From the IMG/VR virus record IMGVR_UViG_3300028833_003520: DNA of 64,000 nucleotides; one strand, 5' to 3'. Positions 38,185-60,163 of the stretch are shown here, piece by piece. The DNA is from a virus. Taxonomy: Duplodnaviria; Caudoviricetes. The position numbers were made by a program, and so were the translations under genes. The notes under the pieces are model-generated. The model was not told the origin of the DNA and did no database searches. It saw nothing but the letters and a program-made list of their open reading frames with translations. Every line of letters starts with the position of its first letter. Position 1 is the first letter of the stretch.

Positions 38185-39213
38185 ATGATTAAACACCATA
38201 AAGGACCTCTTGGGGAGTTCGATTACGATAATTCGATTTGGGAAATTAAATCGACGAGGAATGATTTTGACCCTGCTAATCCCATAATGACTATGGAATA
38301 TAAGTTGAAGGGCAATATCAATGGCTCGGAGATAGAAATACCTTATGGTCTTGTAAAAGCAGATAATCTTTTCAAAGATTGTTCCATACAGACACCACCT
38401 TCAATACCTGCAACTGTTAAAAGTTGTAGAAGTATGTTTGAAGGTTGTTCAGGACTGCGTAAGGCTCCCATTATCCCGAAAGGGGTTAAGGATTGTCATA
38501 GTATGTTTAACGGTTGTATATCGTTAAGAGAGGCTCCTCCGAAAATTCCTGACACTGTTCGGGATTGTCGTTTTATGTTTAACCTCTGTGAGAGTCTGAA
38601 GTCAGGTTCGCCGATGGAAGATACTTTACCGAATGAGCCTGTTCATTGTGACGCAATGTACTATGGCTGTACGCATCTGACAGAGGCTCCGAGAATGGGT
38701 CTGTATGTAGATTCTATGGCTTTTACTTTCAACGATTGCAAGAAGTTGAAATATCCACCTGTTCTTCCTAAAAAGGTTGAGACATTAGCAGGTTGTTTCA
38801 AGGGTTGTGAAAGACTTGAAATGGCACCAAGTATTGGTGAAGGCTGCGTTAAAATGGGTCAGACTTTTAGCGGTTGTAAGAAGTTGGTTTATCCGCCTAC
38901 AATCCCTTATACGACGAGATATATGGAAGGATGTTTTGAGGGTTGTAAGAGTTTAACAACCGTTCCTGCTATTCCACCGTCTGTGGAAACAAGTTCTTCT
39001 CTTACGGTGTTTAGCGGATGTTCGCAGAATGTTCAAGACAAAGGCGAATGGGCATTCAAGAACAGAGGTTGTGATTTTGAGCAGTATGGCGTTGTTTCGA
39101 AGCCCAGTCACCGTATCAGAGGTGATGGTAAGAGGAAACTTCCTTCGGTTGATACGAAGGACTCAGATGAGCCAAATAAGAACCCGAATGATGGCGATTT
39201 TGGTAATTCATAA
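38185..39213 (+). CDS. Cytoplasmic BspA/DUF285-like leucine-rich repeat protein with RKLP C-terminal tag
   Basis: About nine 22-aa MFxGCxxLxxxPxIPxxV repeats; no signal peptide. Confidence 0.8.
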   Translation: MIKHHKGPLGEFDYDNSIWEIKSTRNDFDPANPIMTMEYKLKGNINGSEIEIPYGLVKADNLFKDCSIQTPPSIPATVKSCRSMFEGCSGLRKAPIIPKGVKDCHSMFNGCISLREAPPKIPDTVRDCRFMFNLCESLKSGSPMEDTLPNEPVHCDAMYYGCTHLTEAPRMGLYVDSMAFTFNDCKKLKYPPVLPKKVETLAGCFKGCERLEMAPSIGEGCVKMGQTFSGCKKLVYPPTIPYTTRYMEGCFEGCKSLTTVPAIPPSVETSSSLTVFSGCSQNVQDKGEWAFKNRGCDFEQYGVVSKPSHRIRGDGKRKLPSVDTKDSDEPNKNPNDGDFGNS

Positions 39214-39238
39214 TATAGAAAGGAACTGGTAACGTAGT

Positions 39239-39625
39239 ATGGATAAGAAAGAAGTCAAAAAGAAGATGGCTCAGATGAGCAAGGCAGAGCAACAGCAGGC
39301 TGAAGCCGAGGCAAAGAAGGCTGAAAAGAAGCGTAAAGAAGCCGAAGCACGAAGGAATGCCGAAGTCAAAAAGAGACGCATTGCAGAGCAACAGGCTCGT
39401 GAAGAGGCAGAACGCAGACAGAGAGCCGAAAGGTTTGCCGAAAGTCAGGGCAAGACTGTCGATAGCAAGCCTGCCCGTATAAGAGGCGAAAAACCTGAGG
39501 CGAATGTTCGTAATCGTCGTACAGAGGCGGCTAATGAGCGTCTCAAGATTGCAAAGATTGAGAATAATAAAGCCGAGCAGGAAGCCGAAGGCGAGCGTGT
39601 AAAGATAGGCAAGCGATACGTTTAA
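39239..39625 (+). CDS. Highly charged helical protein
   Basis: K/E/R/A-rich; RBS GAAAGGA. Confidence 0.7.
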   Translation: MDKKEVKKKMAQMSKAEQQQAEAEAKKAEKKRKEAEARRNAEVKKRRIAEQQAREEAERRQRAERFAESQGKTVDSKPARIRGEKPEANVRNRRTEAANERLKIAKIENNKAEQEAEGERVKIGKRYV

Positions 39626-39660
39626 GTAGAGTTTGATATATAACTCACTGGTGGGTTTTA

Positions 39661-39732
39661 CATATATGGGGAAAGTGGTGGTACTCTGTATCGCCACTTT
39701 TTCTTGATATATGAGAGTATGTGTACTATAAT
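39661..39732 (+). promoter_or_regulatory. Operator, terminator-like hairpin and promoter of the relaxase operon
   Basis: CATATATGGG; GAAAGTGGTGGTAC/GTATCGCCACTTTT hairpin; TTGATA(39704)-TATGAG...-TATAAT(39727). Confidence 0.75.
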
Positions 39733-39786
39733 GGGAAACAGATAGTATAAGACAAAATAGCACACTTGTGCATTTAGGAGCAAAAT

Positions 39787-40110
39787 ATGGTACAACCACG
39801 ATGGGGCAATGAGAATCAAACTAATATGTCTTCAATGGTAGATTTTCAACGAAATCTCGAACTTACCAGAATGACACAAGCAACTCAAGCATTAAATGAG
39901 ATTGAAGAAGAGAGACTAATGTTGGAAAAGGCTCAGGCTATGAATGATATGTCTATCTATGAAGACTATATTAGACGGAGAAATGAACGGAAAGCAACAG
40001 AGCAAAACCGTTTGGCAAAAGCAAATAAAGTAATAATTATGATTGGGATTACAGTAGGAATTGTTGGCATTATACTTTTGCTTATAATGTGGGCTTTGTT
40101 TGCATATTAA
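39787..40110 (+). CDS. Small protein with C-terminal TM helix
   Basis: RBS AGGAG; hydrophobic C-terminus. Confidence 0.7.
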   Translation: MVQPRWGNENQTNMSSMVDFQRNLELTRMTQATQALNEIEEERLMLEKAQAMNDMSIYEDYIRRRNERKATEQNRLAKANKVIIMIGITVGIVGIILLLIMWALFAY

Positions 40111-40121
40111 GGAGTGGTTTA

Positions 40122-42365
40122 ATGGGTTTGAAACAATCCGTTGTAATAGTCAACGAGTTTTCTATAAAGAATAAATCGGGTAAGGGTGGTTCACGAGGTG
40201 GAACACCTGGCGACTATGTAACACGATATATGGCTCGTCCTAAAGCAACCGAGGATTTGACACCTGTAAGGTTACAGGACACAGACAAGTTCATTACGAG
40301 ATATATGGCTCGTAAGGAAGCGTCTGAGCAGTGCATTTCAGTCGAAGACGAAAAGGAGCGTATGCGTGAGGCTCAGAAGTTCGGCGGCATAGCCTTTGGT
40401 TATGGCGACGTTTCTTTGTCTGACAGTAAACTTCGTTACGCCAGTAAGGATATACAGAAGGAATTCGAAAGGGGAAAGACGGTCTTAAAGACAGTCTTGT
40501 CTTTTGACGAAGAATACCTCAAATCTAACGGAATCGTTGACGAAGACTTCGAGTTCAAGGAACGAGGAGACTATCGTGGTAACATCGACCAAATGAAACT
40601 CCGTATGGCTATAATGAATGGCTTGGATAAAATGAGCAAAGACTATGATGACTTACGTTATGTAGGCGTTATACAGGTCGATACGGCTCATATACATTGC
40701 CATTTGGCTATGGTGGATGCAGGTCGAGGTAACATTATGCCTGACGGCACGCAAAGAGGGAAACTGTCTGAAAAGAACAAGCGTGATTTGAGGAGAGGAA
40801 TTGATAATTTCCTTGACGAGAAGAAGAAAGTCTTAATGATGACGAGTAATGTCTCAAGAGACAAGAGGAATGCCTTGTGCTATATCAAAAAGTTTACTCA
40901 TAAGACGATGGATGAACACGGTACTCCGCAACTTCTTATGGCTTGTCTTCCTGAAGACAAGAATCTGTGGCGTGCATCGACTAATCGCAAGGAGATGAGA
41001 AAGGCTAATGCAATAGTCAGAGATTATGTAGAAGAGGTATTGAAACAGCCCGATTCAGGTTATGAAGAGGCTATGGAGTCCATACTTCAGTATGCAGATG
41101 AGCGTCGTAGCCGTGAAGACTTGGACAACAAAGAGTATCGTATGTTGTGCAAAAATGGTCGAGAGCAGTTGGTCGAAGACTGTATGAACGGTGTTTATGC
41201 AGTATTGAAGCAAATTCCTGATGAAGAGCGTACTGTTAAGACACCTCTGCTTGATACGATGAGTATGGATTACGAAGAACTGAGCACGAAGGCACAAAGT
41301 GACGAGATGTCGATGTTCGGTTTCAGACTTCGTTCATATAATAACCGTCTGGAATATCATAAGAAGGAAATGAATAAATACCACGAGTATGTACGAATGT
41401 ACGAAGATACTCCTGATGCGGCACGTTCTTCTAAAGTGCTGTATGACTTCTTCAAGGAAGAAGAGGAGTATAATCAGAAACTCGTCGGTAAATATAGGCA
41501 TTTCCTTTCTTTCGCAATCCCTGATGAGAAATATGAGGACGATTTTACAGAACTAATGCAGTATCGTGGAAGGATGACCAATTTAAGACGATTAAAGGAC
41601 GATAAGTCCTTAAAGCGTATGAATCCTGACCGTGCTGAAGAAGAAGGACGTAAAATCTACGGACAAGCAGGCGGTAGATATGCTGCGACAAATCCAAATA
41701 TTCTTGAAACCCGACTCATCAATATGAGATTGAGATACAATCGAATGGAAGAGGATTTTAAGATGAAACTGTCCGAATACGGAATGGTAATGGGTATTAA
41801 GGACGGTAAGATGGTTGTTGAAAGGGGAGAACAGTTCCCATTTGATGATGTTAAGGCTTTAGACTTACATCACCTCGGTTACGATTGGCAGGAAGATATT
41901 ATTATTGCAAAACGAAATGTTGATAACTTCATTGAGGCGACAGACAATCGTTATGAGAAGTATCAGGCTGCAGTACAGTATCTTAAAGATTCTGACCAGG
42001 AGTTGATGATAGACCAGTTGCCTACTAAGGATATTCAGGCTATGAAGGAACTCGCAGACAGTTTGAGAACAAACCCTGTCTTGCCGAAGAGTGATGTCTA
42101 TGAAGGATATAAGCACGACGGTCGTACTGTAAGCCTTGATTTCGATTACGGCGAGGATATGCAACGAGCAGTTAAGATGACCGTTAGAAGCGTCGCAAAT
42201 GCTCCAGATTTCGACGAGAGGCGTTCTACGAGGTCTGTACCTGTTATTCCTGCTGAAGCACCTATAGAGCCTTCTGGAAGGCGTACAGGACGTAATGTAC
42301 CTGATGTTGGTAATAAAAGCCCTGATAACGATTTGGATTCTGTCAGAAGACAGAGAGGCGAATGA
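40122..42365 (+). CDS. Relaxase, MobL-like HUH family
   Basis: RBS AAGGAG before MGLKQS; N-terminal YVTRYMAR tyrosine motif (duplicated), KTVLSFDxxYL, VIQVDTAHIHCH HUH motif. Confidence 0.8.
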   Translation: MGLKQSVVIVNEFSIKNKSGKGGSRGGTPGDYVTRYMARPKATEDLTPVRLQDTDKFITRYMARKEASEQCISVEDEKERMREAQKFGGIAFGYGDVSLSDSKLRYASKDIQKEFERGKTVLKTVLSFDEEYLKSNGIVDEDFEFKERGDYRGNIDQMKLRMAIMNGLDKMSKDYDDLRYVGVIQVDTAHIHCHLAMVDAGRGNIMPDGTQRGKLSEKNKRDLRRGIDNFLDEKKKVLMMTSNVSRDKRNALCYIKKFTHKTMDEHGTPQLLMACLPEDKNLWRASTNRKEMRKANAIVRDYVEEVLKQPDSGYEEAMESILQYADERRSREDLDNKEYRMLCKNGREQLVEDCMNGVYAVLKQIPDEERTVKTPLLDTMSMDYEELSTKAQSDEMSMFGFRLRSYNNRLEYHKKEMNKYHEYVRMYEDTPDAARSSKVLYDFFKEEEEYNQKLVGKYRHFLSFAIPDEKYEDDFTELMQYRGRMTNLRRLKDDKSLKRMNPDRAEEEGRKIYGQAGGRYAATNPNILETRLINMRLRYNRMEEDFKMKLSEYGMVMGIKDGKMVVERGEQFPFDDVKALDLHHLGYDWQEDIIIAKRNVDNFIEATDNRYEKYQAAVQYLKDSDQELMIDQLPTKDIQAMKELADSLRTNPVLPKSDVYEGYKHDGRTVSLDFDYGEDMQRAVKMTVRSVANAPDFDERRSTRSVPVIPAEAPIEPSGRRTGRNVPDVGNKSPDNDLDSVRRQRGE

Positions 42366-42679
42366 TGGAACTGACCAAGGATGCCGCAAAGATTTGTGCC
42401 ATAATTACGGGAGTGATGCTGACCGCAGTTACTTTTGCTTTTGTTATTTTTGTGTTCCGTTTTCAAACTGATAATCAGTATGTAGAACAGTTGGTTCGGG
42501 CAGGAGCACAAATAAGCGACGATATGACATATATAGACGCTCGTGAACAATTAGACAAATCGTCTTCTATTCTTATGGGGTTCGGTGTGTTAGAGTTGTT
42601 ATTGACATCTATTTTTGGTATTTGCTTAAGAGCAGGATTTGTACCTAAGAAGGAGACGAAAAAAGAATGCGAGCGTTAG
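42362..42679 (+). CDS. Small two-TM protein
   Basis: ATGA overlap with the relaxase gene. Confidence 0.65.
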   Translation: MMELTKDAAKICAIITGVMLTAVTFAFVIFVFRFQTDNQYVEQLVRAGAQISDDMTYIDAREQLDKSSSILMGFGVLELLLTSIFGICLRAGFVPKKETKKECER

Positions 42680-43011
42680 TTAATTATGTGGACGCAAATG
42701 ACGGTTTGACAGAAGCAAGGGTTGTAAATGTGTTGACCGTAGGTCGTAACAACATAGGACCGAAAGGTTCTGCATTTACAATCCGCATATCAGACGGATT
42801 ATTGATTTTTAATCATAATGAAAGTCTGATACACAATGATACTTATAAGAAAGTTCTTCAGGAACTTCTTAATAAGGGATATGTTGATTTGACAGCGTAT
42901 GGCGAGTTTGTTGATAAACATACAGCAAGGCGTGAATACGAGGCAGATGGCATATCAGTATTTATACCTAATAGGGAGGACTTCAAAAATGAGCAGAATG
43001 ACCGAGAATGA
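42667..43011 (+). CDS. Hypothetical protein
   Basis: RBS AAGGAG; part of an overlapping gene chain. Confidence 0.65.
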   Translation: MRALVNYVDANDGLTEARVVNVLTVGRNNIGPKGSAFTIRISDGLLIFNHNESLIHNDTYKKVLQELLNKGYVDLTAYGEFVDKHTARREYEADGISVFIPNREDFKNEQNDRE

Positions 43012-43213
43012 GAAAGTGCTTGATTCGTTGAAAATGAATCCTAATCAGGATGAATGGGAATTAACAACGGATGTTAACACAGCAAAATGTATGCTTTTAG
43101 CAGACATTTCGAAGAGTCTTGCAATCCTGGCAGACAAGGTTGAAGAAGAGCGACGCAACAGAGACGGTGCTTCGGCATTTATGAATGACAAGCGTTATGG
43201 AAACGGACAGTAA
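42989..43213 (+). CDS. Hypothetical protein
   Basis: RBS GGGAGG before MSRMTE. Confidence 0.6.
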   Translation: MSRMTENEKVLDSLKMNPNQDEWELTTDVNTAKCMLLADISKSLAILADKVEEERRNRDGASAFMNDKRYGNGQ

Positions 43214-43226
43214 GGAGTGATTATGT

Positions 43227-43784
43227 ATGCCAAAGAAGCGATTGAATAGTCCTGTATATACTTTAGGACGAATGGTTCGCTGCAGAATGACAGAGGATAG
43301 TACCTCTGGAACTCTGTATTCTTATGGACGATACAAAACCAAAATAAAGGTCGAAGATTTGCCTGAAGACTATATCAAATGTCACGCTCGTGTATTTTGG
43401 TATTTATTTGGTTTTGTTAAAACATCAGGTGTTAAAAGCGTTGCTTTTACTTATTGTAAGGAAAATCACGTTTTTAAGGATGACTATCTTTATATCGGCT
43501 ATCAGGGTCCCTTGGTTCCTGTATATTCGGAATATTTAGAGGGGTATATATGCGATTATAAAGATGGTGAACATAGCAGTCTTTGTGTCGATGGAAGCGA
43601 CATAGTAAGATTGGTATTGGCTATCGAGAAGTATTCTCCTGATGTAGATACATCTGAGGTTAGAAGACTTATTGACGAGAAGATAGAATATCTTCGTACA
43701 AAAGAGACGGATTACTATAAGAGTTGCTTCAACACAACAGAAAAGATAGATATCTTTGAGTTGTGGGGAAAGGATGGTTATTGA
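43227..43784 (+). CDS. Hypothetical protein
   Basis: RBS AAGGAG; 185 aa. Confidence 0.7.
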   Translation: MPKKRLNSPVYTLGRMVRCRMTEDSTSGTLYSYGRYKTKIKVEDLPEDYIKCHARVFWYLFGFVKTSGVKSVAFTYCKENHVFKDDYLYIGYQGPLVPVYSEYLEGYICDYKDGEHSSLCVDGSDIVRLVLAIEKYSPDVDTSEVRRLIDEKIEYLRTKETDYYKSCFNTTEKIDIFELWGKDGY

Positions 43785-43785
43785 T

Positions 43786-43998
43786 ATGTTTGGATATTGG
43801 ATTCAGATTATTGCCCTGGTAGCGTTTGCAGTTGGATATCTTATCTTCATAGGTTGCGGAGTGATGAACGCAGCAAGCGAGAAGATTAAGTTTGTTCCCA
43901 ATGATGGTGTTTACGATGTGTCAGCCTGCATTGGTGGACTCAGCGTAATAATGTTTCTGATTGGCGTAGTTGTTAATCACGGATTGTTCTTTATGTGA
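43786..43998 (+). CDS. Small two-TM protein
   Basis: Start MFGYWI; hydrophobic. Confidence 0.55.
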   Translation: MFGYWIQIIALVAFAVGYLIFIGCGVMNAASEKIKFVPNDGVYDVSACIGGLSVIMFLIGVVVNHGLFFM

Positions 43999-44005
43999 GG
44001 TGAAT

Positions 44006-44353
44006 ATGGATAACTGGATGCGAAACCTTCGAAATACTATTACTGTGTGGGGTCCAAGTCTTATCTGGACAATAATCTGTTTGGTGATTGTTTTAACACT
44101 CATTATTTTGTGTATTATTACACTTGTTCGTTTGTGTAAAGTTTTAGGAAAAATTCAAGGATTTTTTGAAGAACTTGAAGCAAATGGAGCCACGCTTGCA
44201 CAAGTAACTTATGCAAAAGCCGTAAGTCTTAAAACGATTGCAGAAACAACCGATGATATTGCAGATGAAACTGAAGGTTTGAAAGTTGTTACTGAGGCAA
44301 TTGGTTATGAAGATATGAGTGTTTATGAAAATTATAAGAAAGGGCGTGACTGA
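44006..44353 (+). CDS. Single-TM protein
   Basis: RBS GAGGTG before MDNWMR. Confidence 0.6.
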   Translation: MDNWMRNLRNTITVWGPSLIWTIICLVIVLTLIILCIITLVRLCKVLGKIQGFFEELEANGATLAQVTYAKAVSLKTIAETTDDIADETEGLKVVTEAIGYEDMSVYENYKKGRD

Positions 44354-44354
44354 T

Positions 44355-44639
44355 ATGAGCAGGCAAAGGCGGAGCATAAAAGCCACACCAAATTGGATAA
44401 TACCTGATACTGTTGAAAGAGATAAAACTTTAGTTATAAGAATTGTAATTATTGTTGTTTTATTAAGTATTCTCATCCCTATATTAACTATGTGTGGTTT
44501 TGAATATAATATGAATATTGCTCAAGGCGGTAAGCAGACAATTGAAGACCTTATGGGTTCTGGTAAGACAGATACAAGTGCAACAGGTGTACAACCTTGG
44601 GAAACAGTTCAAGGAGCAACTGGTCAAACAATTAAGTAA
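44355..44639 (+). CDS. Single-TM protein carrying a copy of the pilin's NIAQGGKQTIEDL segment
   Basis: 44514-44589 aligns with 30082-30154. Confidence 0.65.
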   Translation: MSRQRRSIKATPNWIIPDTVERDKTLVIRIVIIVVLLSILIPILTMCGFEYNMNIAQGGKQTIEDLMGSGKTDTSATGVQPWETVQGATGQTIK

Positions 44640-44660
44640 TTTAGATTATAATAAAACAAT

Positions 44661-45533
44661 ATGGATGCAGTTAAGAAACAATTAAAAATTTGGAGAATTG
44701 ATAATATTATAATTGCATTTGTAATGTCGGTTACAGTTAGTGCTTTTTGGGAAGTCAGAATGCACGGTTTTAGTCTATTTATAGGATTTTTCTTTTTAAT
44801 TGCAGTGTTAATCACTTTATGCAAAGCATATAAGTTTAATCCTTTCGTATCATTTGAACCTATTGTATTCATAATTGATATTACGAATAAGCGAAATGTT
44901 GATTATGATGAATACATAAATAACTGGGTTTTTAATAATGAAAATTACGATTTTAAGATTGAAAGAGAATCACATTTATCAACTTGGGAGAGTAATTGTA
45001 AGGATATAATTGACAGAGAAATATTCTTTAAGAAACATAGATTAAACCAGTATGCGATTGTGAAGCAGCAGGTGACCGATTATCATTATCCAATATTTCA
45101 ATGGAATTTTGTTCGTTATCATACTCGATATCGACAAGTTAATTATCAACGATATTCTTATGCTGTTGATGATTTGGATTATATTGTACAAAAATCGTAT
45201 ATTGATACTTGGGAATTAGATGCTATATGTGAAGAAAGAATACGCCAAAATGAAGAAAGTTTCGAAAGAACGCAACGCTTTTTAGAAAATAATAAGTATT
45301 GGCTTCGTTCTCGTTCTCGTTCGGTAGGACCTAAACAGCGTCAGCGTATTTTGAGAAGAGATAACTTTACTTGTCAATTATGTGGTGCAAAAGGTCCTGG
45401 TGCTGGTGGTAGTGCTGAATTAGAAGTTGACCACAAATTACCTTTTAGTTTAGGTGGAAGCGATAAAGATAGTAATTTGTGGACATTATGTAAAGATTGT
45501 AATAGAGGGAAGAGTAATGATTATATAGATTGA
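44661..45533 (+). CDS. Membrane-anchored HNH endonuclease
   Basis: Two N-terminal TMs; C-terminal RD..TCQLCG...EVDHK.P...GG....NLWTLC..CN. Confidence 0.8.
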   Translation: MDAVKKQLKIWRIDNIIIAFVMSVTVSAFWEVRMHGFSLFIGFFFLIAVLITLCKAYKFNPFVSFEPIVFIIDITNKRNVDYDEYINNWVFNNENYDFKIERESHLSTWESNCKDIIDREIFFKKHRLNQYAIVKQQVTDYHYPIFQWNFVRYHTRYRQVNYQRYSYAVDDLDYIVQKSYIDTWELDAICEERIRQNEESFERTQRFLENNKYWLRSRSRSVGPKQRQRILRRDNFTCQLCGAKGPGAGGSAELEVDHKLPFSLGGSDKDSNLWTLCKDCNRGKSNDYID

Positions 45534-45564
45534 CGCTTAAGAAGCGATATACTATAATAATTAC

Positions 45565-45635
45565 AATTCTTTTCGTCATTAGTTCGCTGGTCAAGATAGT
45601 TAAACAGAATCACGTTTCGTGGTTCTGTTTTTCTT
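45565..45635 (+). ncRNA. Putative ~70-nt small RNA
   Basis: TTGACG(45530)-17-TATAAT(45553) promoter followed within ~45 nt by the terminator AAACAGAATCACG-TTT-CGTGGTTCTGTTT-TTC; no ORF. Confidence 0.4.
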
Positions 45636-45678
45636 TGTTCAGATATATTTATCGTACCATTAAAAGTACATAAATCTC

Positions 45679-45707
45679 TTGATATATGAGGAGATTCGTG
45701 CTATAAT
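45679..45707 (+). promoter_or_regulatory. recD2 operon promoter with operator half-site
   Basis: TTGATA-TATGAG...-TATAAT, 17-bp spacer. Confidence 0.8.
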
Positions 45708-45747
45708 ACGAATGTACTTAACCTATTGGCAAATGGAGAATATATCA

Positions 45748-48132: not shown

Positions 48133-48136
48133 CAAG

Positions 48137-51259: not shown

Positions 51260-51267
51260 GGTGTAAT

Positions 51268-51543: not shown

Positions 51544-51544
51544 A

Positions 51545-51990: not shown

Positions 51991-52009
51991 GAGAAAGGAG
52001 CACTAACAA

Positions 52010-52171
52010 ATGGCACGCCAAAAACCTATTAAGAATGAACTTGAGAGAATAATAGAGGAAGAAGGATATCGCCCTTGTTTATTTAATCACGAGTGTTTTG
52101 GGTTTGCGTGTTCTAAATATCGTGACTGTGAGTTGCGAGGTGTTACAGTGCGAGGTAATAAGAAAGAATGA
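52010..52171 (+). CDS. 53-aa Cys-containing protein (not in the ORF track)
   Basis: RBS AGAAAGGAG; MARQKPIKNEL...C..C..C..C; ATGA overlap with the next gene. Confidence 0.6.
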   Translation: MARQKPIKNELERIIEEEGYRPCLFNHECFGFACSKYRDCELRGVTVRGNKKE

Positions 52172-52527
52172 TAATGTTTTGTATATGCAATGATTGTGGT
52201 TCACAAACAGAGTTGGATTGCAATGTTCACATAGGTTTTTTGAGAGGTACACAATTTGAGTACCTCTTATCTAATCCGAATTTCACGGAAGAACGCTTTC
52301 AAAATTGGTGGAAAGTGATGTGGGATAATCATCAGATTGCTTGGTGCGAAGACCAAGACGTAATTAACCGTTTCGGCGGTGATGTTGCTGCTTACGGCGG
52401 TACATACGATGAGGAAACTATGAGAATGAAAAATCCGACGGATTTATTCTTGGATGAAGTTGATAGATACACTCAGAATGGGTGTGTCTGTCCAGTATGT
52501 GGTTCGAAAAATAACCGATTGCGTTGA
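52168..52527 (+). CDS. Zinc-binding hypothetical protein
   Basis: CNDC near the N-terminus and CPVC near the C-terminus. Confidence 0.65.
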   Translation: MIMFCICNDCGSQTELDCNVHIGFLRGTQFEYLLSNPNFTEERFQNWWKVMWDNHQIAWCEDQDVINRFGGDVAAYGGTYDEETMRMKNPTDLFLDEVDRYTQNGCVCPVCGSKNNRLR

Positions 52528-52541
52528 AAGGGGCGTTTACA

Positions 52542-53180
52542 GTGAAGAGTCTTGACAAAGTTTTTTATCGAAACAAAACAAAAAGAACACCAAATACTAT
52601 GCTTGATAGGTTCTTTTGGCTTAATCCAAATCTGTCAGGTGAAAAGGCTTGGGGTGATAGTTCAAATGTCACCTACGAGAATATCTATAAGATAGCGACT
52701 TTTGTAAACGATTTTCACGGGCAGGCTTGGGGAACATCACTTCATAGAAGTGTATTCAAGATTGCAGGGTATAGGTGTCTTTGCCAAATCGAAACACCAT
52801 ATCTTTTGACGTGGAAAGAGTCCTTAAATATACATAAACCCGAAGATGTAGAAATGCGTATTCGGTTTATTTTTAATGATGACCATTATGCAAGTCTGCT
52901 TGATTTTGGTCGTAGTTATTTGATTGCTCATATAGGTGAACTGCCACAGGAAACGGAAGCCTTGCGAGAGTTTCTTGACGAGCGTATTGCAGAATGTGCT
53001 CGTCAGTTCTGTAAAGAACTTCTGTGGATTCTCGGTAATATTACCGAGGAGAAGACTGGATATCGTTCACCTGAAGAGTTAGACGAAATCAAATGCAGCG
53101 AAGAGTCGATTACAGAAGAATATGTTCGCTTATTTGGTCAGAGAGTTAAGGACGATGGGAGAGTAACAGACGATGCCTGA
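52542..53180 (+). CDS. Hypothetical protein
   Basis: Long ORF; GTG start after AAGGGG (start uncertain). Confidence 0.65.
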   Translation: MKSLDKVFYRNKTKRTPNTMLDRFFWLNPNLSGEKAWGDSSNVTYENIYKIATFVNDFHGQAWGTSLHRSVFKIAGYRCLCQIETPYLLTWKESLNIHKPEDVEMRIRFIFNDDHYASLLDFGRSYLIAHIGELPQETEALREFLDERIAECARQFCKELLWILGNITEEKTGYRSPEELDEIKCSEESITEEYVRLFGQRVKDDGRVTDDA

Positions 53181-54054
53181 TTATACATATGAGATATGGG
53201 GTGGTAAAAAGATTTATGCGAGGAGCCATAGTCTTGAAATAATTACTGAAAGGTTGCAGGAATTATGGAACACTCCTGTTGGAAGTAGGCAAGAAGCCTT
53301 TACAATAAAGCGAGTGGAAAAACAACACCCACATATGCCAGGGCATTCTTTAGAGAAAAATAGTTTAGCCAAGAGGTTTCCGAAGGTTGCTAAACTGTGG
53401 CATCCAACAAAGAACGATTGCCTAACACCGTCTGATGTTTTTCCTTATAGTAAAACAAAGGTATGGTGGCAATGTAAAAAAGGACACGAGTATTTTATGG
53501 CTATCGACAGTATGGTAAGTGGTGCGAAATGTCCTTGCTGTACTCTTAGGCAAGCGGTGCCAGGAGAGACTGATTTGGCTACAACGCATCCTGATGTTGC
53601 CAAACTATGGCATCCAACAAAGAATGGCGATTTAACACCATTACTTGTGACCGAGAGGTCTGCAGAGAAAGTTTGGTGGCAGTGTGAAAAAGGTCACGAA
53701 TGGGAAGAGCGTATAAATGTTCGTGTTTCAAGAAAGTCCAGTTGCCCTTATTGTAGCGGTACGAGGCTTATAAAGGGCGAGAATGATATTGAAACGCTTT
53801 ATCCCGAAATCGCAAAAGAATGGAAAGATACGAGGCTGAACGGTGGTCTGAAACCCTCAGAATGCACGGAACGTACATTTAAGAATGTATGGTGGCAGTG
53901 CAGCAAGTGTGGAACAACTTATCAGGCTTCGGTCTTTAGACGAGTGAAGGGGTGGCAGAAGTGTCCGACTTGTTATCCTAATGAAGATAATATAATTTCT
54001 CCGAAACGAGCGTATGATGGTTATACGACAATAAGGAGAAAATCAAATAAATAG
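53173..54054 (+). CDS. Protein with three tandem zinc-ribbon (WHPTKN...VWWQC...CPxC) repeats
   Basis: Three repeats; same domain as 14152..14850. Confidence 0.8.
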   Translation: MPDYTYEIWGGKKIYARSHSLEIITERLQELWNTPVGSRQEAFTIKRVEKQHPHMPGHSLEKNSLAKRFPKVAKLWHPTKNDCLTPSDVFPYSKTKVWWQCKKGHEYFMAIDSMVSGAKCPCCTLRQAVPGETDLATTHPDVAKLWHPTKNGDLTPLLVTERSAEKVWWQCEKGHEWEERINVRVSRKSSCPYCSGTRLIKGENDIETLYPEIAKEWKDTRLNGGLKPSECTERTFKNVWWQCSKCGTTYQASVFRRVKGWQKCPTCYPNEDNIISPKRAYDGYTTIRRKSNK

Positions 54055-54068
54055 TTAAAAAGTTAAAT

Positions 54069-54106
54069 GAAAACCTCAAATGTTAAAATTTGGGGTTTTT
54101 CTTTTT
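54069..54106 (+). terminator. Intrinsic terminator
   Basis: GAAAACCTCAAAT/ATTTGGGGTTTTT plus T tract. Confidence 0.75.
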
Positions 54107-54113
54107 GATTTAA

Positions 54114-54149
54114 TTGACAATCTCCATATATGGTGTTATAGTGTTTTTA
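54114..54149 (+). promoter_or_regulatory. Cargo-operon promoter, copy 2
   Basis: TTGACA-atctCCATATATGGtgt-TATAGT-gttttta. Confidence 0.85.
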
Positions 54150-54182
54150 GATTGCAAAACTATGCATAGAAGGAGATTTGCT

Positions 54183-55127
54183 ATGTTAATTGGTCCTGAT
54201 TTCAAATCGTCTAATACGCCTGACGCAATAGTGCGTTGGTACGATAAAGCCGATGTATTTCGTGTAAATAAAGAGGGCGATATTCTTCAGGTTGATTCTG
54301 ATGCGAATGCAAAGCAGCCTGGTTATTTTATACGTATGTGCATATCTGATATGACAGAGAATAGTGAGCGTTCTTATTTAAGATTTGGATTGTTTCATAC
54401 GGATGCTCCTGATGAGCCTTTGTTTATGGGTGCTCCGTTGACAGGATTGCCTGCTAATGCAATGAAGGAATTGTTAGTGACGGAAGGCAAAATCAACGAC
54501 AACGGTAAACAGTTTCTTAAGTATTTCAAGGCAGACTGTGATAACAATCAATCTGTTATTAAGGGACAGTATAAGACTGCAAAAGCCTATCACGATTTTG
54601 TTACTAAGCGTGAAGGCGAGGGTGTTTATGATTATGGTTGTTATGATATGTCAGATGAACTCGGACAGTTTTCAGACGTAGTTGAGAAGAATAAACATAA
54701 ACATCCATTTGAGTATGGATTTATCAATCTTTCAGATAAGGAAGCAGACCAATTAGGTATTCCTCATAATGAAGTATCATCTGCAGAACTTCTTTATGAG
54801 ATACCATACAATAGGAAAGATAGGGTTCGTTTGTTTGCGTCTATGAAGGCTCCTTTAGAGGGAGAGTATGAGAGAGATAGACAGTTTGTTCCTGTATCTG
54901 AATTAGGCAAGGATAAAGAGTTATTAGCGTGGCAGATGGCAGTGGATTATTATCAGATTTATTGTTCAAAGATGTCTCATCGAGTTTGTAATACATCTAA
55001 TTTTAGCCTTATGCCTGATTCTGTAAAGAATGAAATTCAAGAGCAAGAACACGCTGAATCAAAAGAAAGACGGTTGCCAAATGTTCCTGAATCACAGGAA
55101 GATAATCAAACACAGTTAGGAGAATAA
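54183..55127 (+). CDS. Hypothetical protein with RRLP C-terminal tag
   Basis: RBS before MLIGPD; N-terminal domain similar to the C-terminal domain of 55989..57263. Confidence 0.8.
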   Translation: MLIGPDFKSSNTPDAIVRWYDKADVFRVNKEGDILQVDSDANAKQPGYFIRMCISDMTENSERSYLRFGLFHTDAPDEPLFMGAPLTGLPANAMKELLVTEGKINDNGKQFLKYFKADCDNNQSVIKGQYKTAKAYHDFVTKREGEGVYDYGCYDMSDELGQFSDVVEKNKHKHPFEYGFINLSDKEADQLGIPHNEVSSAELLYEIPYNRKDRVRLFASMKAPLEGEYERDRQFVPVSELGKDKELLAWQMAVDYYQIYCSKMSHRVCNTSNFSLMPDSVKNEIQEQEHAESKERRLPNVPESQEDNQTQLGE

Positions 55128-55129
55128 AA

Positions 55130-55231
55130 ATGATTATTGTTTTTGAAGAATTACAAGTTAGTTCAAGTGATGGTGATTATGTTCCCACTGATGAGGAATT
55201 AGCAGAGTTATATAATGATGTAGGAGAATAG
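55130..55231 (+). CDS. 33-aa acidic peptide (not in the ORF track)
   Basis: AGGAG RBS; MIIVFEELQVSSSDGDYVPTDEELAELYNDVGE; exactly fills the gap between two genes. Confidence 0.55.
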   Translation: MIIVFEELQVSSSDGDYVPTDEELAELYNDVGE

Positions 55232-55235
55232 TATT

Positions 55236-55985
55236 ATGGGTATTGGAACACCTTATGGTTACAATGGTGAGATAAAACGGCTTTATGATAAAGACGATAA
55301 GACTCCATCATATATAACACCAACTTTTATGCAGAATAAAACATTGGGTGATATTCAGACGTTTGTTCAAGATGATACAAGTAATATAAGGAGTGATAAG
55401 ACAATGGCTAATAACAAGAAGAAAGCACTGAAGAAGCAGACAGTTATCGTTGATAAGAACGATAAGAAGACAATCGAGATACTTAAAGAACAAAATATCA
55501 ATGTGGTCGAAGCATCACATTCGGATTTTGTTAGAATGAAGAAAGAGGCTCAGATGTCGCCTTTGAAGAAGGCAGGCGAGGTAGCGAAAACGGTTCTTGA
55601 ACCGAAGCCTATTTCGGCTAAATCCATTTCGGTTGCTTCAACGCAAGATAAGCCTGCACAGTTCAAGACGGGTAATGCTGTTATTGATACGATACTTGAT
55701 AAAGACGCAGGCGTTAGCAAGGATGGTCCTACACCGTCTCTTCAGATTGGTGTCGTTAAGAAGGATGGTGCTACACCTTCTGTTGCAGAGCAACTGAAGG
55801 ATAGAGTTCCTATGCTTCACGGTCGTGAGAGAGTGAAGTCTCCTACGGAGAGAATGATTGTTCCTGCTGGGCAGTATGCTGGACCTGATGGTGATTTCGA
55901 TGGTACAACTGTGGATGTTAAGAAGCGTAAGTTACCGAATGTGCCGACGGCAAATGATGGTACACAGCAGCAGTTAGGAGAATAA
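55236..55985 (+). CDS. Hypothetical protein with RKLP C-terminal tag (alternative in-frame start at 55404)
   Basis: RBS before both ATG 55236 and ATG 55404. Confidence 0.75.
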   Translation: MGIGTPYGYNGEIKRLYDKDDKTPSYITPTFMQNKTLGDIQTFVQDDTSNIRSDKTMANNKKKALKKQTVIVDKNDKKTIEILKEQNINVVEASHSDFVRMKKEAQMSPLKKAGEVAKTVLEPKPISAKSISVASTQDKPAQFKTGNAVIDTILDKDAGVSKDGPTPSLQIGVVKKDGATPSVAEQLKDRVPMLHGRERVKSPTERMIVPAGQYAGPDGDFDGTTVDVKKRKLPNVPTANDGTQQQLGE

Positions 55986-55988
55986 TCT

Positions 55989-57263
55989 ATGGCTATTCAG
56001 AAGTACAATGGAGAGTTAGGTAAATTTGAGTATGATGATACTCAATTTGAAATATGCAATGGTGTAGTTAATGGAGACATTTATCTACATTACATCGGTA
56101 AGGAAACGGATGGCTCGAAGATTACAATTCCTTATGGCATCGAAGATGCTAATAAAATGTTTAAGGACACGGCTATCAAGACTGCTCCAACAATCCCCGA
56201 TAGCGTTAAGGTATGTAATGAAATGTTTTGCGGTTGCAATAAGTTGGTAGAGGCATCAGAAATACCGACAAATGTACGGTCTTGTTACCATATGTTTTAT
56301 GGTTGCAAATCGTTAAAAGAGCCGCCTTATATTCACGATGGACCTGAAGACTGTCGTGGAATGTTTCAGAACTGTAGCCATCTTGAAGTTGGTGCAGAAT
56401 TACCAAATACTGCAACAAAAGTTTCAATGGTTTTTTGCGGTTGTGGTTCTATGAAGAGTGCTCCTGATATGCCAAACATTATGCGTATCAAGTCTATGGA
56501 TAGTGCGTTTATGGGATGTAAATCTTTGGAAAGAGCATTTATCCCTGATGGTGTGGAAGATTGTAGTTTTATGTTTAACGGATGTACTTCTCTTAAAGAA
56601 GCACCTGCAGTACCATCGTCTGTTATTAAGACAAGTTATATGTTTGACAGATGTACTGATGAGATACAGGGTCAAGGCAAGTGGAATATTGAACATAGAA
56701 ATAGACGTGCTTCTCAGGATGAGCCGAAGGCTTTGAGAGATGCAAGGCAGGCTATGATTATGAAAAAGCAGCAGGATAAAATGCAGAGATATGTTTATGC
56801 AGAAGGTAAGACCTGTAACGGTCACGACTTGGCATTTGCTTTCGATATGTATCACGATAATGTTGTACGTTTTAGAAAGGGTAGGTTATTTCAAGAGAGA
56901 AGAGATATGAACGATAAGGGTAATTACTTTGCTCGTATAATGCAGGTCACTAACGGTGACCCGTATGCAAGAGATTCTCTTATCGTAATGTTCCACGATG
57001 ATATGCCTTCAACGCCACTTTATGCAGAGCATTTTGGCTTGTGCGATGGTACTCTTAAAAAGCATCTGTACGACCAGAATGGTTCGTTCACGAATCTTGG
57101 CAATGATATGATGCTTGATTTCTTAAATGGTGATTTTAAGAAGAATGTACCAGAGGTGGTCAAGTATAAGGATAAGTTGATGAAGAATCCGAAACTCAAC
57201 GAGCGTAGATTACCTGATTATCCTAAGGAGAATGAAGGTAATGATAAACAGTATGGAGAGTGA
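55989..57263 (+). CDS. BspA-like LRR protein + unknown domain + RRLP tag
   Basis: About seven MFxGCxxL repeats; no signal peptide. Confidence 0.8.
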   Translation: MAIQKYNGELGKFEYDDTQFEICNGVVNGDIYLHYIGKETDGSKITIPYGIEDANKMFKDTAIKTAPTIPDSVKVCNEMFCGCNKLVEASEIPTNVRSCYHMFYGCKSLKEPPYIHDGPEDCRGMFQNCSHLEVGAELPNTATKVSMVFCGCGSMKSAPDMPNIMRIKSMDSAFMGCKSLERAFIPDGVEDCSFMFNGCTSLKEAPAVPSSVIKTSYMFDRCTDEIQGQGKWNIEHRNRRASQDEPKALRDARQAMIMKKQQDKMQRYVYAEGKTCNGHDLAFAFDMYHDNVVRFRKGRLFQERRDMNDKGNYFARIMQVTNGDPYARDSLIVMFHDDMPSTPLYAEHFGLCDGTLKKHLYDQNGSFTNLGNDMMLDFLNGDFKKNVPEVVKYKDKLMKNPKLNERRLPDYPKENEGNDKQYGE

Positions 57264-57271
57264 CAATCCAA

Positions 57272-57961
57272 ATGATTAAATGGCGAAGACAAGAAGTTGA
57301 TTGCCACGAGCAACGAAGTAATTCGGTCACAACAACTATTTATAAGTTTCACTTAGGTTCAACGGCTGCTAAAGCCGTTGGTGCTTATTGTGACGAAGAA
57401 AATCATCAGTATGGTGATTTGACTTATATTACTTCGAATAGTCCTGAGATACAGTCCAACATATTCGTAGATATGTCTGTAAACGATATTCTGGATAATT
57501 TTAGCGATAATGAGAAAATGATAGATACTATCATTTACGACCAGAATAACGATTACTGTATTAGTAAGGAAACGAAGACAGGCGATAGAATGATAAAAGT
57601 GCCGTTTTCTTATTTACCTTCTGACCAATGTTATTTGGCTCATAATATCGTTTTAGCAAATATGCGTGTTTGCTTTGGCGATAGTTTTAAGTTAGATGAT
57701 AGAGTACATAACATTGCAGTTGAAAGAAGCAGTGACAAGGATTGTAGTAAAATGAATATCTCTACAAACGGTTACTGTTGGATTTCAGGTTCTCCCAGTG
57801 ATGGTAATAATTATCATAGGTATGTTGACGCATATCGTGATAACGATGAAGGAAGACATAACCTACGAGACTTTTATGATAATACACCGTCAAAGTTTAG
57901 GCGTATGCCAAGTGTTCCGATAGATAACTCGAATGTATTCCAGGCACAGGTTGGTGGTTGA
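57272..57961 (+). CDS. Hypothetical protein with RRMP C-terminal tag
   Basis: ORF coupled to the upstream gene; start at 57260 or 57272. Confidence 0.75.
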   Translation: MIKWRRQEVDCHEQRSNSVTTTIYKFHLGSTAAKAVGAYCDEENHQYGDLTYITSNSPEIQSNIFVDMSVNDILDNFSDNEKMIDTIIYDQNNDYCISKETKTGDRMIKVPFSYLPSDQCYLAHNIVLANMRVCFGDSFKLDDRVHNIAVERSSDKDCSKMNISTNGYCWISGSPSDGNNYHRYVDAYRDNDEGRHNLRDFYDNTPSKFRRMPSVPIDNSNVFQAQVGG

Positions 57962-57962
57962 T

Positions 57963-58589
57963 ATGGCTATTAAACAGTATGATGGTCAGTTAGGTAAGTT
58001 TGAGTACGATGATACAGAGTTTAAGCATCTTATTTTCAGAGACGGACGTAAGGAGTGCCTGATGTATATCGGCAATGAGTCAGACGGCTCGAAAATTAAA
58101 ATACCACAAGGAATCAAGGATTGTTCCTTTATGTTTGATAGGTGTGAATCGTTAGAGACACCACCTGTGATTCCTGAAGGTGTAGAAGATTGCAGTGTTA
58201 TGTTTTCTGATTGCAGAAACTTAGAAGTTCCACCGATTATACCTTCATCAGTAAAGAAATGCGATGCAATGTTTTACTATGCAAGGTGTATGCGTGAATC
58301 ACCTGTAATTCCTGAAGGTGTAGAAGATTGTACCTTGATGTTTCAGGGTTGTTATAATATGCGTTCGGCTCCCGTAATACCTCATAGCGTTAAGGACACG
58401 ACTTGTATGTTTTGCGTATGCTCACGTAAGGTAAGCGAAGCAGGGGAGTGGAATATTGAGCACAGAGGTCAGTCTTATGAGAGCGTTCAGAAACGCCATA
58501 GGGATGCCGAAAACAAACTCAAAGAGTTTGAGGAAAAAGAAGAATCAAGCACGAAATCTCGCCGAGGTTTTCATCTCCCATTCTTTTGA
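57963..58589 (+). CDS. Short BspA-like LRR protein lacking the canonical tag
   Basis: MAIKQYDGQLGKFEYDD N-cap shared with 55989 and 38185; four to five repeats. Confidence 0.8.
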   Translation: MAIKQYDGQLGKFEYDDTEFKHLIFRDGRKECLMYIGNESDGSKIKIPQGIKDCSFMFDRCESLETPPVIPEGVEDCSVMFSDCRNLEVPPIIPSSVKKCDAMFYYARCMRESPVIPEGVEDCTLMFQGCYNMRSAPVIPHSVKDTTCMFCVCSRKVSEAGEWNIEHRGQSYESVQKRHRDAENKLKEFEEKEESSTKSRRGFHLPFF

Positions 58590-58592
58590 GAA

Positions 58593-58621
58593 TTGACTTT
58601 CTCCATATATGGAGTTAGAAT
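58593..58621 (+). promoter_or_regulatory. Cargo-operon promoter, copy 3
   Basis: TTGACT-tt-CTCCATATATGGAG (perfect 14-bp palindrome)-t-TAGAAT. Confidence 0.85.
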
Positions 58622-58657
58622 AACTTTAGATATTGATAGAAAGGAAAGTAGTGGGTT

Positions 58658-60163
58658 ATGGCAGATATAGATGAAAAGAATTATCAACAGCATCATTATG
58701 ATGATTATGCCAAGTTAAATGGGTTCTACAATGATGAGGAGTACAATAATTCTTACATTAACGGACTTTCTACGAAGTATGTTAAGGATTATAAGAATTA
58801 TAAATCAGCCCTTATTTCAGTTCCTACTGAAGTATCGTCTAATGGTAGAGCCTTAATTACATTCAAGAATTATAATGAGGCGGTCAAAGGCAAAGGTTAT
58901 GTCAATCTGAGGTTCCCTCAGAATTACGAGATTAAGACCATCTGTAAGGATGCCGATAATAAAGATGTCATTTATCATATGACGGCAGACCAGTTGAACG
59001 AGTGTCGTTCGGCTGCGAAGAATAAGACAGATGAAGTCTTAAAGTCAGTTACGTTTGACTTTGCTGATGAGAGCAAGATTAAGTGTCGATTTGATTTTGA
59101 TGATTATAGTCGTCAGTATGACCTTAAAGACCTTAATAGTGCTCTTGAGTATCTGCAGATTAGAAATTCTGCAAAGAATCTTATCACTGACGATACGATG
59201 ATTTACGCAAGAGTTAATAAAGCGTATTGCACGAAGGATTTCCAAGACAAGATGTCCTACTACTCTGGCGACAATTATTGCTTCGAATTAGGTATGCTTA
59301 AAGACACATACAATAAGGGATGTGGCTTGAATGTCAACATTCCTTTTGATGAGAAGTATAATCATTTCAATAGCGTATTAGGAACTGCGACAGACTCGCT
59401 TACATTGTCCCTGACAAATCATTATGAGAGGAGTTTACCTCGTGATGATAAGGAAGGAGATTGGACTATTACAGAGTCTCACAGCGACGTAGCCGCAGCA
59501 TACAGAATACCGTCGGTGCTGGCAACGGCTGGTGTGGGTATGCGTTTTGAAACTCGTGAAGATGCAGATATGCAGGCACGGTCTTCAATGAGTGATTTAG
59601 TGTTAGCGATGAACGATAAGGAAAAGGTAGAGCCTACCGAAACAAGTAGGTACGGAAAGATGCCTATCGAGTATTTCCTTGTTCATATCTCTGATAGAGA
59701 TAGTTATGTCTTATGTGCAGGTCCGAAGGGTGCTTCTGAAGGACTTGACGGAAGACGTTTACCGAGTGTAGGCGGAGTACCTATGTACGAAGGATTCGTT
59801 GGTATGACGAAGCGTCATTTCGGAGGTTTTGGATTAGGCGACACAGTATGTATCGCAAAGGAGAACAAAAACGGAGAAACGGCATTGGAGCCTATTGACG
59901 CAGTACCTTTGGTACAGCAGTCAGTTGTCAAAGATGAAGGTAAGTTCTTGGAATTAGAGCATTCACTTTTACAGAAATTACCGTTAGAAGTCAGACAAGC
60001 AGAGGTTGAGAATAAAAAGAAGAATGCTCCAGATACTAAACCTTGGATAAGGGAATTAAGTGTAGGAGTAGATTCTGATGTTAAATCACCAAAGCCAAAG
60101 AAGAGGCGACTGCCTGATAGAACGTATGAACCTGGTGTTGAAACACCTGAACTTGAGTTGTAA
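58658..60163 (+). CDS. Hypothetical 501-aa protein with RRLP C-terminal tag
   Basis: Monocistronic; ends KKRRLPDRTYEPGVETPELEL; also has an internal GRRLPSV. Confidence 0.8.
   Translation: MADIDEKNYQQHHYDDYAKLNGFYNDEEYNNSYINGLSTKYVKDYKNYKSALISVPTEVSSNGRALITFKNYNEAVKGKGYVNLRFPQNYEIKTICKDADNKDVIYHMTADQLNECRSAAKNKTDEVLKSVTFDFADESKIKCRFDFDDYSRQYDLKDLNSALEYLQIRNSAKNLITDDTMIYARVNKAYCTKDFQDKMSYYSGDNYCFELGMLKDTYNKGCGLNVNIPFDEKYNHFNSVLGTATDSLTLSLTNHYERSLPRDDKEGDWTITESHSDVAAAYRIPSVLATAGVGMRFETREDADMQARSSMSDLVLAMNDKEKVEPTETSRYGKMPIEYFLVHISDRDSYVLCAGPKGASEGLDGRRLPSVGGVPMYEGFVGMTKRHFGGFGLGDTVCIAKENKNGETALEPIDAVPLVQQSVVKDEGKFLELEHSLLQKLPLEVRQAEVENKKKNAPDTKPWIRELSVGVDSDVKSPKPKKRRLPDRTYEPGVETPELEL

Follow-up and report, generated by a model that had tools for sequence, protein, structure and literature searches.

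The stretch of DNA analysed here (64 kb of IMG/VR record IMGVR_UViG_3300028833_003520; hereafter the window) corresponds, in reverse-complement orientation, to part of a 243,497-bp contig of the Joint Genome Institute (JGI) from rumen metagenomes, and near-identical contigs were found in several other metagenomes. Between 38 and 60 kb, within a long run of plus-strand genes, lie six genes whose products end in a similar short tail, in which a basic, proline-containing box precedes the C-terminus by a nearly fixed distance. This tail is called the tag below.

The first tagged gene (protein 1; 38185..39213) encodes a 342-residue protein of the BspA-type LRR_5 leucine-rich repeat family, with RKLP at 39133, 26 residues before the end, and a tail (39130-39210) that finishes in F-G-N-S. 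Protein 2 (54183..55127) has 314 residues when counted from the likely start at 54183, the longest open reading frame (ORF) beginning at 54114; RRLPNVP at 55068 stands 19 residues before the end, and the tail (55062-55124) closes with Q-L-G-E. The same ending is found in protein 3 (55236..55985; 249 residues, no family), of which the tail (55920-55982) carries RKLPNVP at 55926, also 19 residues from the end. Protein 4 (55989..57263; 424 residues) combines an LRR_5 domain with a 140-residue C-terminal domain, and its tail (57204-57260) starts with RRLPDYP, 19 residues before the end, and terminates in Q-Y-G-E. Protein 5 (57272..57961) has 229 residues from the likely start at 57272 (longest ORF from 57260), with RRMPSVP at 57899, 20 residues before the end, in a tail (57893-57958) ending in Q-V-G-G. 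Finally, protein 6 (58658..60163; 501 residues, no family) carries RRLPDR at 60104, 19 residues before the end, in a tail (60098-60160) ending in E-L-E-L. The likely starts of proteins 2 and 5 were set from orthologues. An untagged LRR-family paralogue of proteins 1 and 4 (57963..58589, plus strand, 208 residues) provides a natural control, indicating that the tail is separable from the LRR-family fold.

A search for the pattern R[RK][LM]P in all six reading frames of the window gave eight matches, seven of which fall within credible plus-strand ORFs at 38-60 kb: six near a C-terminus (19-26 residues before the stop codon) and one internal to the 501-residue protein, at 59753. The eighth match lies in a non-coding frame of the opposite strand. 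When the residues of 61 predicted ORFs were permuted, 0.044 proteins with R[RK][LM]P in the last 30 residues were expected, as compared to the six observed (Poisson P about 1e-11). Enrichment near C-termini over shuffled proteins had been set beforehand as a check in an earlier note on this DNA, which had proposed the tag as a candidate translocation signal, and the positions and C-terminal distances of the six boxes listed there agree with the translations. The note had also described the tagged proteins as lacking signal peptides, and indeed no stretch resembling a signal peptide or a transmembrane segment is present in any of the six.

The consensus of the tag is a [KR][RK][LMV]P box, often continued by x-[VY]-P, followed by 13-20 polar or acidic residues and an end made up of a hydrophobic or aromatic residue and G-[E/N/G]. 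Five of the six tags have L, Y, V or F three or four residues from the C-terminus (-3 or -4), and the sixth has L at both -2 and -4. The polar/acidic linker reported earlier is reflected in the net charge of the last 15 residues, which is -1 to -4, directly after the basic cluster. According to all-against-all BLAST, similarity between carriers is limited to 21-38 residues, and the six carriers belong to five unrelated body families, in line with the earlier statement that most bodies are unrelated; the sole exception is the pair of LRR_5 paralogues at 38185-39213 and 55989-57263 (E 8e-41), the other four being alike in the tail only. In an AlphaFold2 model of protein 2, residues 293-314 have a pLDDT (predicted local distance difference test score) below 50, so the tail appears disordered; the overall pLDDT of 57 is too poor for a fold search. 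The tags do not resemble sortase sorting signals (LPxTG-like, with a hydrophobic segment and a positive end): T-G does not follow L-P, a hydrophobic segment is absent and the end is acidic.

Several comparisons bear on the level at which the tag is constrained. In aligned 3' ends, the codons for Arg, Leu and Pro of the box vary from copy to copy and the spacers differ throughout, which points to a constraint on the peptide instead of the DNA and excludes a recent DNA duplication as well as an element acting at the nucleotide level. The last 21 residues of protein 2 are invariant across five orthologues, one of which is only 72% identical overall; the chance of 21 out of 21 identical tail residues at this level of identity is 0.72^21, or about 0.001, and a 9-residue indel is located directly before the tail in the orthologue comparison. 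The earlier note had considered that orthologues might lack the motif, and these five retain it unchanged. An LRR_5 homologue of protein 1 in a relative (L069; 394 residues, 33% identical) retains RRLP 27 residues before the end and terminates in Y-G-N-T, with a completely changed spacer. In another relative, L002, the counterpart of protein 4 has lost the LRR part (167 residues remain) and kept the tail. The alternative that this 167-residue protein (P0001) joins the tail to a different body was rejected, as it is protein 4 minus its LRR domain. L002 is otherwise so close to the window that tails and bodies are equally conserved, which makes that comparison uninformative.

The Shine-Dalgarno sequence (GGAG or GGTGG) of a gene starting 6-14 nt further on overlaps the codons of the terminal G-E or G-G in four of the six cases. 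A pure ribosome-binding-site footprint is argued against by the constant reading frame of G-E, which a ribosome-binding site alone would not need, and by the 342-residue LRR protein, which ends in F-G-N-S without a ribosome-binding site at that place. Furthermore, two tagged genes without a closely coupled downstream gene still have the box at the same distance. As judged from these alignments and the permuted ORFs, the tag is real, non-random and under selection at the level of the peptide.

Two observations on individual tagged genes can be added. The internal motif of the 501-residue protein (RRLPSV, 59753-59770, plus strand) is followed by G-G-V-P, then about 12 residues further by Y-E-G-F and next by a Met; this region (59753-59800) resembles the tail of a 119-residue tagged protein (RRLPEVGGVEP), and the 501-residue protein may be a fusion of two once-separate tagged genes. 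A 33-codon ORF in the interval 55128-55235 begins 2 nt past the stop of the gene for the 314-residue protein, uses a GGAG within the last codons of that gene, and is annotated as a gene on public contigs.

The tagged genes are close to a set of putative transfer genes. A relaxase of the MobL family (Pfam MobL, E 1.7e-62) is encoded on the plus strand at 40089..42365, with a likely start at 40122 (747 residues). Among the products of the transfer-gene block at 22888-37175 are a 1339-residue membrane protein with seven segments, several bitopic proteins and a protein with a lysozyme domain. A Walker A motif was absent from all 13 ORFs scanned in the interval 22.9-40.1 kb, and a VirB4-type ATPase is not evident there. 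The membrane block and the relaxase gene show synteny to the transfer region of a Streptomyces plasmid of 639 kb; Streptomyces plasmid NZ_CP109461 has the transfer backbone in common and no such tails. Further genes of the window encode a topoisomerase, a RecD2-like helicase and HNH nucleases, as well as a 3517-residue wall-anchored protein (1851-12404) that ends in V-V-Q-T-G, a hydrophobic segment and a basic tail, an ending that by its sequence is a VQTG-type sorting signal for sortase. A sortase gene (15602-16477) lies 3 kb downstream of it.

No tags were found in the approximately 20 kb of the contig directly beyond the window. Past this region, the gene order is Clp-like ATPase, coiled-coil protein, VirD4, RNA-polymerase-like protein and HU-type proteins. 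The two-ring Clp/Hsp100-like ATPase (L008:10285-12105; 606 residues) adjoins VirD4, with the 763-residue coiled-coil protein between them. The VirD4-type coupling protein itself (L008:14566-18939) has 1458 residues with the Pfam domains T4SS-DNA_transf, TrwB_AAD_bind and TraG-D_C, and is encoded about 21-25 kb past the window end on the same contig, which bears out the earlier expectation that it would be found outside the window. Directly after it follows the RNA-polymerase-like protein (L009:10703-17113; 2136 residues, weak Rpb1 hit), of which the tail (RRTIETP) gives no C-terminal match to the tag profile described below. Proteins of this type, with 2100-2800 residues, directly follow VirD4 in most relatives (L029-L034, G001 contig 1), and the order of Clp-like ATPase, coiled-coil protein, VirD4 and polymerase-like protein is a module that recurs in relatives. 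Further downstream the contig encodes more tagged proteins of 181, 530 and 119 residues, and a looser case of 338 residues. A 182-residue protein (L010:12273-12821 / L012:84-632) has an RRKLP box at residues 7-11 and RRNMP 32 residues before the end, and is the only case seen with a box at the N-terminus. By its gene content, the transfer system is atypical.

The spread of the tag among relatives was investigated with a profile built from nine tails. When this was applied to about 110 kb of element proteins, tagged proteins scored 21-46 bits and all others at most 5 bits, the top scorers all being members of the training set. The relative L069, a 235.5-kb contig with a 69% identical relaxase and a 93% identical VirD4 core, encodes four tagged proteins near its relaxase, three of which have no counterpart at that place in the window. 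In contrast, the tag was not found in 528 predicted proteins of seven more distant relatives. The check on conservation in homologous elements, as proposed earlier, is thus positive for L069, on other proteins, and negative for these seven. The tail profile gave chance-level matches, none at a real C-terminus, both in five whole genomes with a related VirD4 and in 401 Oscillospiraceae genomes. No basic-Pro box was found at the relaxase-centred loci of two further lineages with 66% and 59% identical relaxases, where acidic ends with an aromatic residue are frequent.

Database searches gave a similar picture. When tail alignment A3 was used for a word-based search of 5.8 billion proteins, the element's own family was the only one recovered. 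With alignment A4, a profile search of 1.84 billion representatives gave nine matches at E <= 0.001, of which seven are from the own family, another is a repeat protein unrelated to it and the last is a 59-residue fragment that carries this tail, the 30-position profile being blind to diverged tails. Two distant relatives (G001 contig 1 and G003 contig 38) were also searched de novo for k-mers common to other tails, which is a weak method and yielded nothing clear. Searches with tagged proteins of JGI metagenome contigs and IMG/VR gave no matches, the relaxase query found no relative among GTDB genomes, PLSDB contains no DNA near-identical to the window, and literature searches revealed no description of this tag.

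Taken together, the tag is present on at least ten proteins of about eight unrelated families within one family of conjugative megaplasmids of some 240 kb. It is a lineage-specific, probably disordered, two-part C-terminal peptide. In more distant relatives without the basic-Pro box (L072, L074, L061, L030-L034), many proteins encoded close to the transfer genes have an acidic run at the C-terminus, with an aromatic or hydrophobic residue at one of the positions 1-3 from the end, e.g. M-Q-F-Q, D-E-Y-I and M-Q-Y-D. These ends may represent an older, looser form of the same signal.

The range of the tag, which comprises the lineage of the window and L069, is much narrower than that of VirD4. The core of the coupling protein (about residues 300-1200) shows 70-79% identity to its counterparts on plasmids of Arthrobacter, Nocardiopsis, Streptomyces and Kribbella. 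Full-length matches, with a best segment that is 55-73% identical, occur in Lachnospiraceae, Oscillospiraceae, Erysipelotrichaceae and actinobacterial genomes; the related element of Lachnospiraceae bacterium A4 showed no tag. Between the low-GC element and the actinobacterial plasmids, conservation of the VirD4 core is far above that of the relaxase (45%). The variable stretches of the protein are residues 51-300, 901-950 and 1200-1458. In some relatives, intein or homing-endonuclease domains are present inside VirD4.

The explanation that we favour for these findings is that the tag is an address or recruitment signal for the VirD4-type coupling protein of the transfer machine. A common partner would read the tail as an address label, the best candidate reader being the transfer machine via its 1458-residue VirD4, and the tagged proteins would be brought to the channel and then exported or co-transferred with the DNA. 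We infer the receptor, the translocation and the cargo role alike, from the genetic context (MobL relaxase, VirD4, transfer genes) and from analogy. In favour of recruitment by VirD4 are the survival of the tag upon domain loss in L002, the variation of the carrier set between relatives, the presence of the MobL relaxase, the Clp-like ATPase, the coiled-coil protein and the giant VirD4 on the same contig, and the synteny of the transfer module with that of an actinobacterial conjugative plasmid. For VirD4-dependent substrates, unstructured C-terminal signals are the rule, plasmid proteins are known to be moved, and substrates must unfold (PMC8406263, PMC5826034). We consider this explanation tentatively, as one that has slightly less than an even chance of being correct. 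A more far-reaching proposal is that conjugative megaplasmids of about 240 kb from rumen and gut Clostridia use a discrete linear C-terminal delivery signal, composed of a basic R-x-hydrophobic-P box, an acidic spacer and an end with an aromatic residue and G-E, by which a changeable set of at least 12 plasmid proteins is sent into the recipient with the DNA via one VirD4-based machine; this is conceivable but rather doubtful.

A number of observations weigh against recruitment by VirD4. Relatives in which no such tag was seen have a VirD4 core that is 70-79% identical; since the tag is lineage-specific, the reader would have to be lineage-specific as well, i.e. a variable part of VirD4 or a lineage-specific adaptor. 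A complex prediction for VirD4 residues 760-1458 (40-row alignment) with a 45-residue tail gave a score of 0.00, with no controls run, and counts neither for nor against such recruitment. The last 15 residues of the tags, with their net charge of -1 to -4, differ from the net-positive, Arg-rich last 20 or so residues of VirB/VirD4 substrates, and the end motif may in part be due to the overlapping ribosome-binding sites. Moreover, the cargo proteins match no informative family in Pfam, and in PHROGs only families of unknown function; an ESM Atlas look-up with protein 6 was uninformative. A role in anti-defence is not supported. The Clp-like ATPase, which might be expected to unfold the substrates, has intact Walker A and Walker B motifs and finds its best solved match in the translocon-associated Hsp101. 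As compared to Hsp101, however, the pore-loop tyrosine of the first ring is replaced and a 12-residue pore-loop segment of the second ring is deleted, and the ClpP-docking tripeptide [ILV]-G-[FL] is absent. Judged by these residues, the protein is not an obvious threading unfoldase or protease partner. This weakens the idea that an unfoldase feeds VirD4 as well as the possibility, discussed below, that the tag is a degron.

The relaxase, as the one certain substrate of the machine, adds further difficulties. Its C-terminal tail (42219-42362, plus strand) contains two basic boxes, RRSTRSVP and RNVP (at 42291, 24 residues before the end). The second forms part of G-R-N-V-P-D-V and is followed by a polar spacer and an R-G-E end, so that the tail reads like a variant tag. 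The two degenerate motif copies that had been noticed here earlier are thus present with the letters and the distance then given, but against the tag profile the tail scores 2.6 bits, which is at noise level. In the 120 closest relaxases (P0135-P0254), a conserved C-terminal module of about 45 residues is common, which consists of a basic cluster, [RK]-T-[VI]-x-L-[DG]-x-D-Y, a helix-like stretch that is missing from the window relaxase, and an end that is often Q-[LF]-G-[ED]. The ending Q-hydrophobic-G-[E/D/N/S/G] is found in 36 of the 120 relaxases versus none of 120 coupling proteins, with the qualification that the 36 are mutually related and not independent and that the pattern was defined after seeing both sets. 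Within the window this ending is limited to four tagged proteins. The resemblance thinly suggests that the tags imitate the relaxase's own recruitment tail. On the other hand, a profile-profile comparison of tags with relaxase-family tails was not significant (E 0.8), and the L069 relaxase lacks an R-x-hydrophobic-P box. Of the earlier expectation that relaxases would share the motif, what stands is that the tails of this family often end as the tags do. The paper that defined MobL is silent on a C-terminal signal or module (PMC5313138).

Other functions of the tag can be envisaged. It may be a docking motif unrelated to secretion, which in the donor tethers proteins to one abundant element-encoded partner, in the way of clamp-binding and SSB-tail motifs; candidates for such a hub are the RNA-polymerase-like protein, an HU-type protein, the coiled-coil protein or a replication/partition hub. 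One short linear motif near the terminus of many unrelated proteins is indeed what the clients of a hub typically look like, the element encodes large nucleic-acid machinery itself, and four of the six boxes (RRLPNVP, RKLPNVP, RRLPDYP and RRMPSVP) fit +xΦPxΦP, the class I proline-rich (SH3-type) ligand pattern. However, Pfam scans revealed no recognisable peptide-binding domain in any candidate hub, the sole SH3-like match being the structural SH3_13 domain of the RecD2-like helicase, below the Pfam cut-off. The fixed distance to the free C-terminus and the conserved extreme end are also unusual for simple docking motifs, and the tagged genes are clustered beside the transfer genes. We regard docking to a hub as unlikely.

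Alternatively, the tag may be a C-terminal degron or stability switch that exposes short-lived proteins to regulated proteolysis or remodelling by an AAA+ machine of the host or the element. Such a function would fit the two-part layout (an upstream box, a near-constant spacer and a conserved extreme C-terminus), the apparent disorder of the modelled tail and the presence of a Clp-family ATPase on the element. This ATPase, however, has neither the ClpP-docking tripeptide nor the tyrosines of both pore loops, the tails lack known degron ends such as LAA, and it would be hard to explain why a plasmid keeps at least ten genes that are alike only in the instability of their products, which makes a degron rather improbable. 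The BspA-type LRR family is usually found on cell surfaces, and two of the six carriers are LRR_5 proteins without signal peptides; with the heavy surface investment of the element (the 3517-residue wall-anchored protein and the sortase), this raises the question whether the tag could direct export, by the transfer machine or another route, for surface display or release instead of injection, e.g. of mating adhesins on the donor surface. Most carriers lack adhesin-like features, though, and the tails have no sortase-type sorting signal, so we consider display quite improbable; it would in any case be a variant of recruitment by the transfer machine, not a separate mechanism. That the tag is no protein signal at all, and reflects a nucleotide constraint at the 3' end, a nascent peptide in the ribosome tunnel at termination (where the fixed distance to the stop codon would place the box) or descent from a duplicated 3' segment, is highly improbable: the overlap with downstream Shine-Dalgarno sequences in four of the six genes is outweighed by the differing box codons and synonymous sites of the spacer, the constant G-E frame, the box at unchanged distance in the two genes without a closely coupled neighbour, and the aromatic-G-N end of protein 1, which is kept in the 33% identical homologue with no ribosome-binding site there.

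Substrate choice by conjugation machines is poorly understood, above all in Gram-positive-type systems, for which we know of no consensus signal on protein substrates. If the more far-reaching proposal above is correct, no type IV signal defined by its sequence would precede the tag in conjugation systems of the Gram-positive type, and the injected cargo, or co-transferred protein set, could be predicted directly from genomes or metagenomes. It would also give an indication of what a giant plasmid needs upon entry, such as establishment, counter-defence or competition. A short sequence-defined tag would make substrate choice directly testable, and could be a handle for protein delivery between bacteria. 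Even if it serves for docking or stability instead, it marks out uncharacterised proteins as a co-regulated set in a widespread and unstudied megaplasmid family.

Comparison with known systems shows which features of the tag have precedents. The ssrA tag is a two-part C-terminal degron that is read by SspB and ClpX. Like the tag described here, it has an upstream adaptor-binding box, a constrained spacer and a recognised extreme C-terminus. The residues are different, however, and the present tag is encoded in the genome and not added co-translationally; the element's own Clp-like ATPase, furthermore, does not have the features of a ClpP-coupled threading unfoldase. The signals of the Legionella Dot/Icm (type IVB) system consist of a Glu-rich E-block and a hydrophobic residue near the end, and are bound by DotM of the coupling complex. 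An acidic stretch and a near-end hydrophobic residue are found in the window tags as well, and the likeness extends to the acidic or polar nature of the last 20 or so residues, the presence, 2-4 positions from the end, of a hydrophobic or aromatic residue and the occurrence on many unrelated substrates. Dot/Icm signals are not known to include anything like the basic R-x-hydrophobic-P box with its fixed spacing, the coupling protein of the element is of the VirD4 type, and general Pfam scans of the element proteins, which did not include a DotM-specific search, named no DotL or DotM families.

In Xanthomonas, the toxins of a type IV secretion system carry the Xanthomonas VirD4-interacting protein conserved domain (XVIPCD), a folded C-terminal domain that is bound by the all-alpha domain of VirD4 (PMC8740702). 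There, as may be the case here, a shared C-terminal module defines the cargo set of a type IV system and makes cargo predictable from sequence. The XVIPCD is a folded domain of about 120 residues, whereas the tag is a linear peptide of 20-27 residues: similarity between carriers covers just 21-38 residues and the modelled tail has a pLDDT below 50. Toxin-immunity pairs are not evident in the megaplasmid. Transfer of proteins along with DNA is known from the F plasmid, of which the ParA, ParB, SSB, PsiB and PsiA proteins are transferred by conjugation (PMC8406263). The idea proposed here is the same, i.e. that soluble plasmid proteins accompany the DNA and aid establishment. For the F-plasmid substrates no shared linear tag is known, whereas for the megaplasmid the tag is the only evidence, from which we infer transfer.

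The Agrobacterium effectors VirE2, VirE3 and VirF carry a net-positive, loosely defined Arg-containing C-terminal signal (Vergunst et al. 2005, as cited in PMC8406263). Such VirB/VirD4 signals and the tag are both short, unstructured, C-terminal and Arg-containing, occur on unrelated proteins, and are accompanied by a VirD4-type coupling protein, in our case the 1458-residue protein on the same 243-kb contig. VirB/VirD4 signals lie in the last 50 or so residues of soluble proteins, and all six window tags are so placed, at 19-26 residues from the end. The likeness to Agrobacterium-type signals that the earlier note had drawn therefore holds for the C-terminal position and the arginines, but not for the charge of the extreme C-terminus, which is net negative instead of positive. 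Whereas the Agrobacterium signal is loosely defined, the tag of this Gram-positive-type conjugative megaplasmid, known from sequence alone, combines a discrete basic-Pro box with a net-negative tail and a conserved extreme end.

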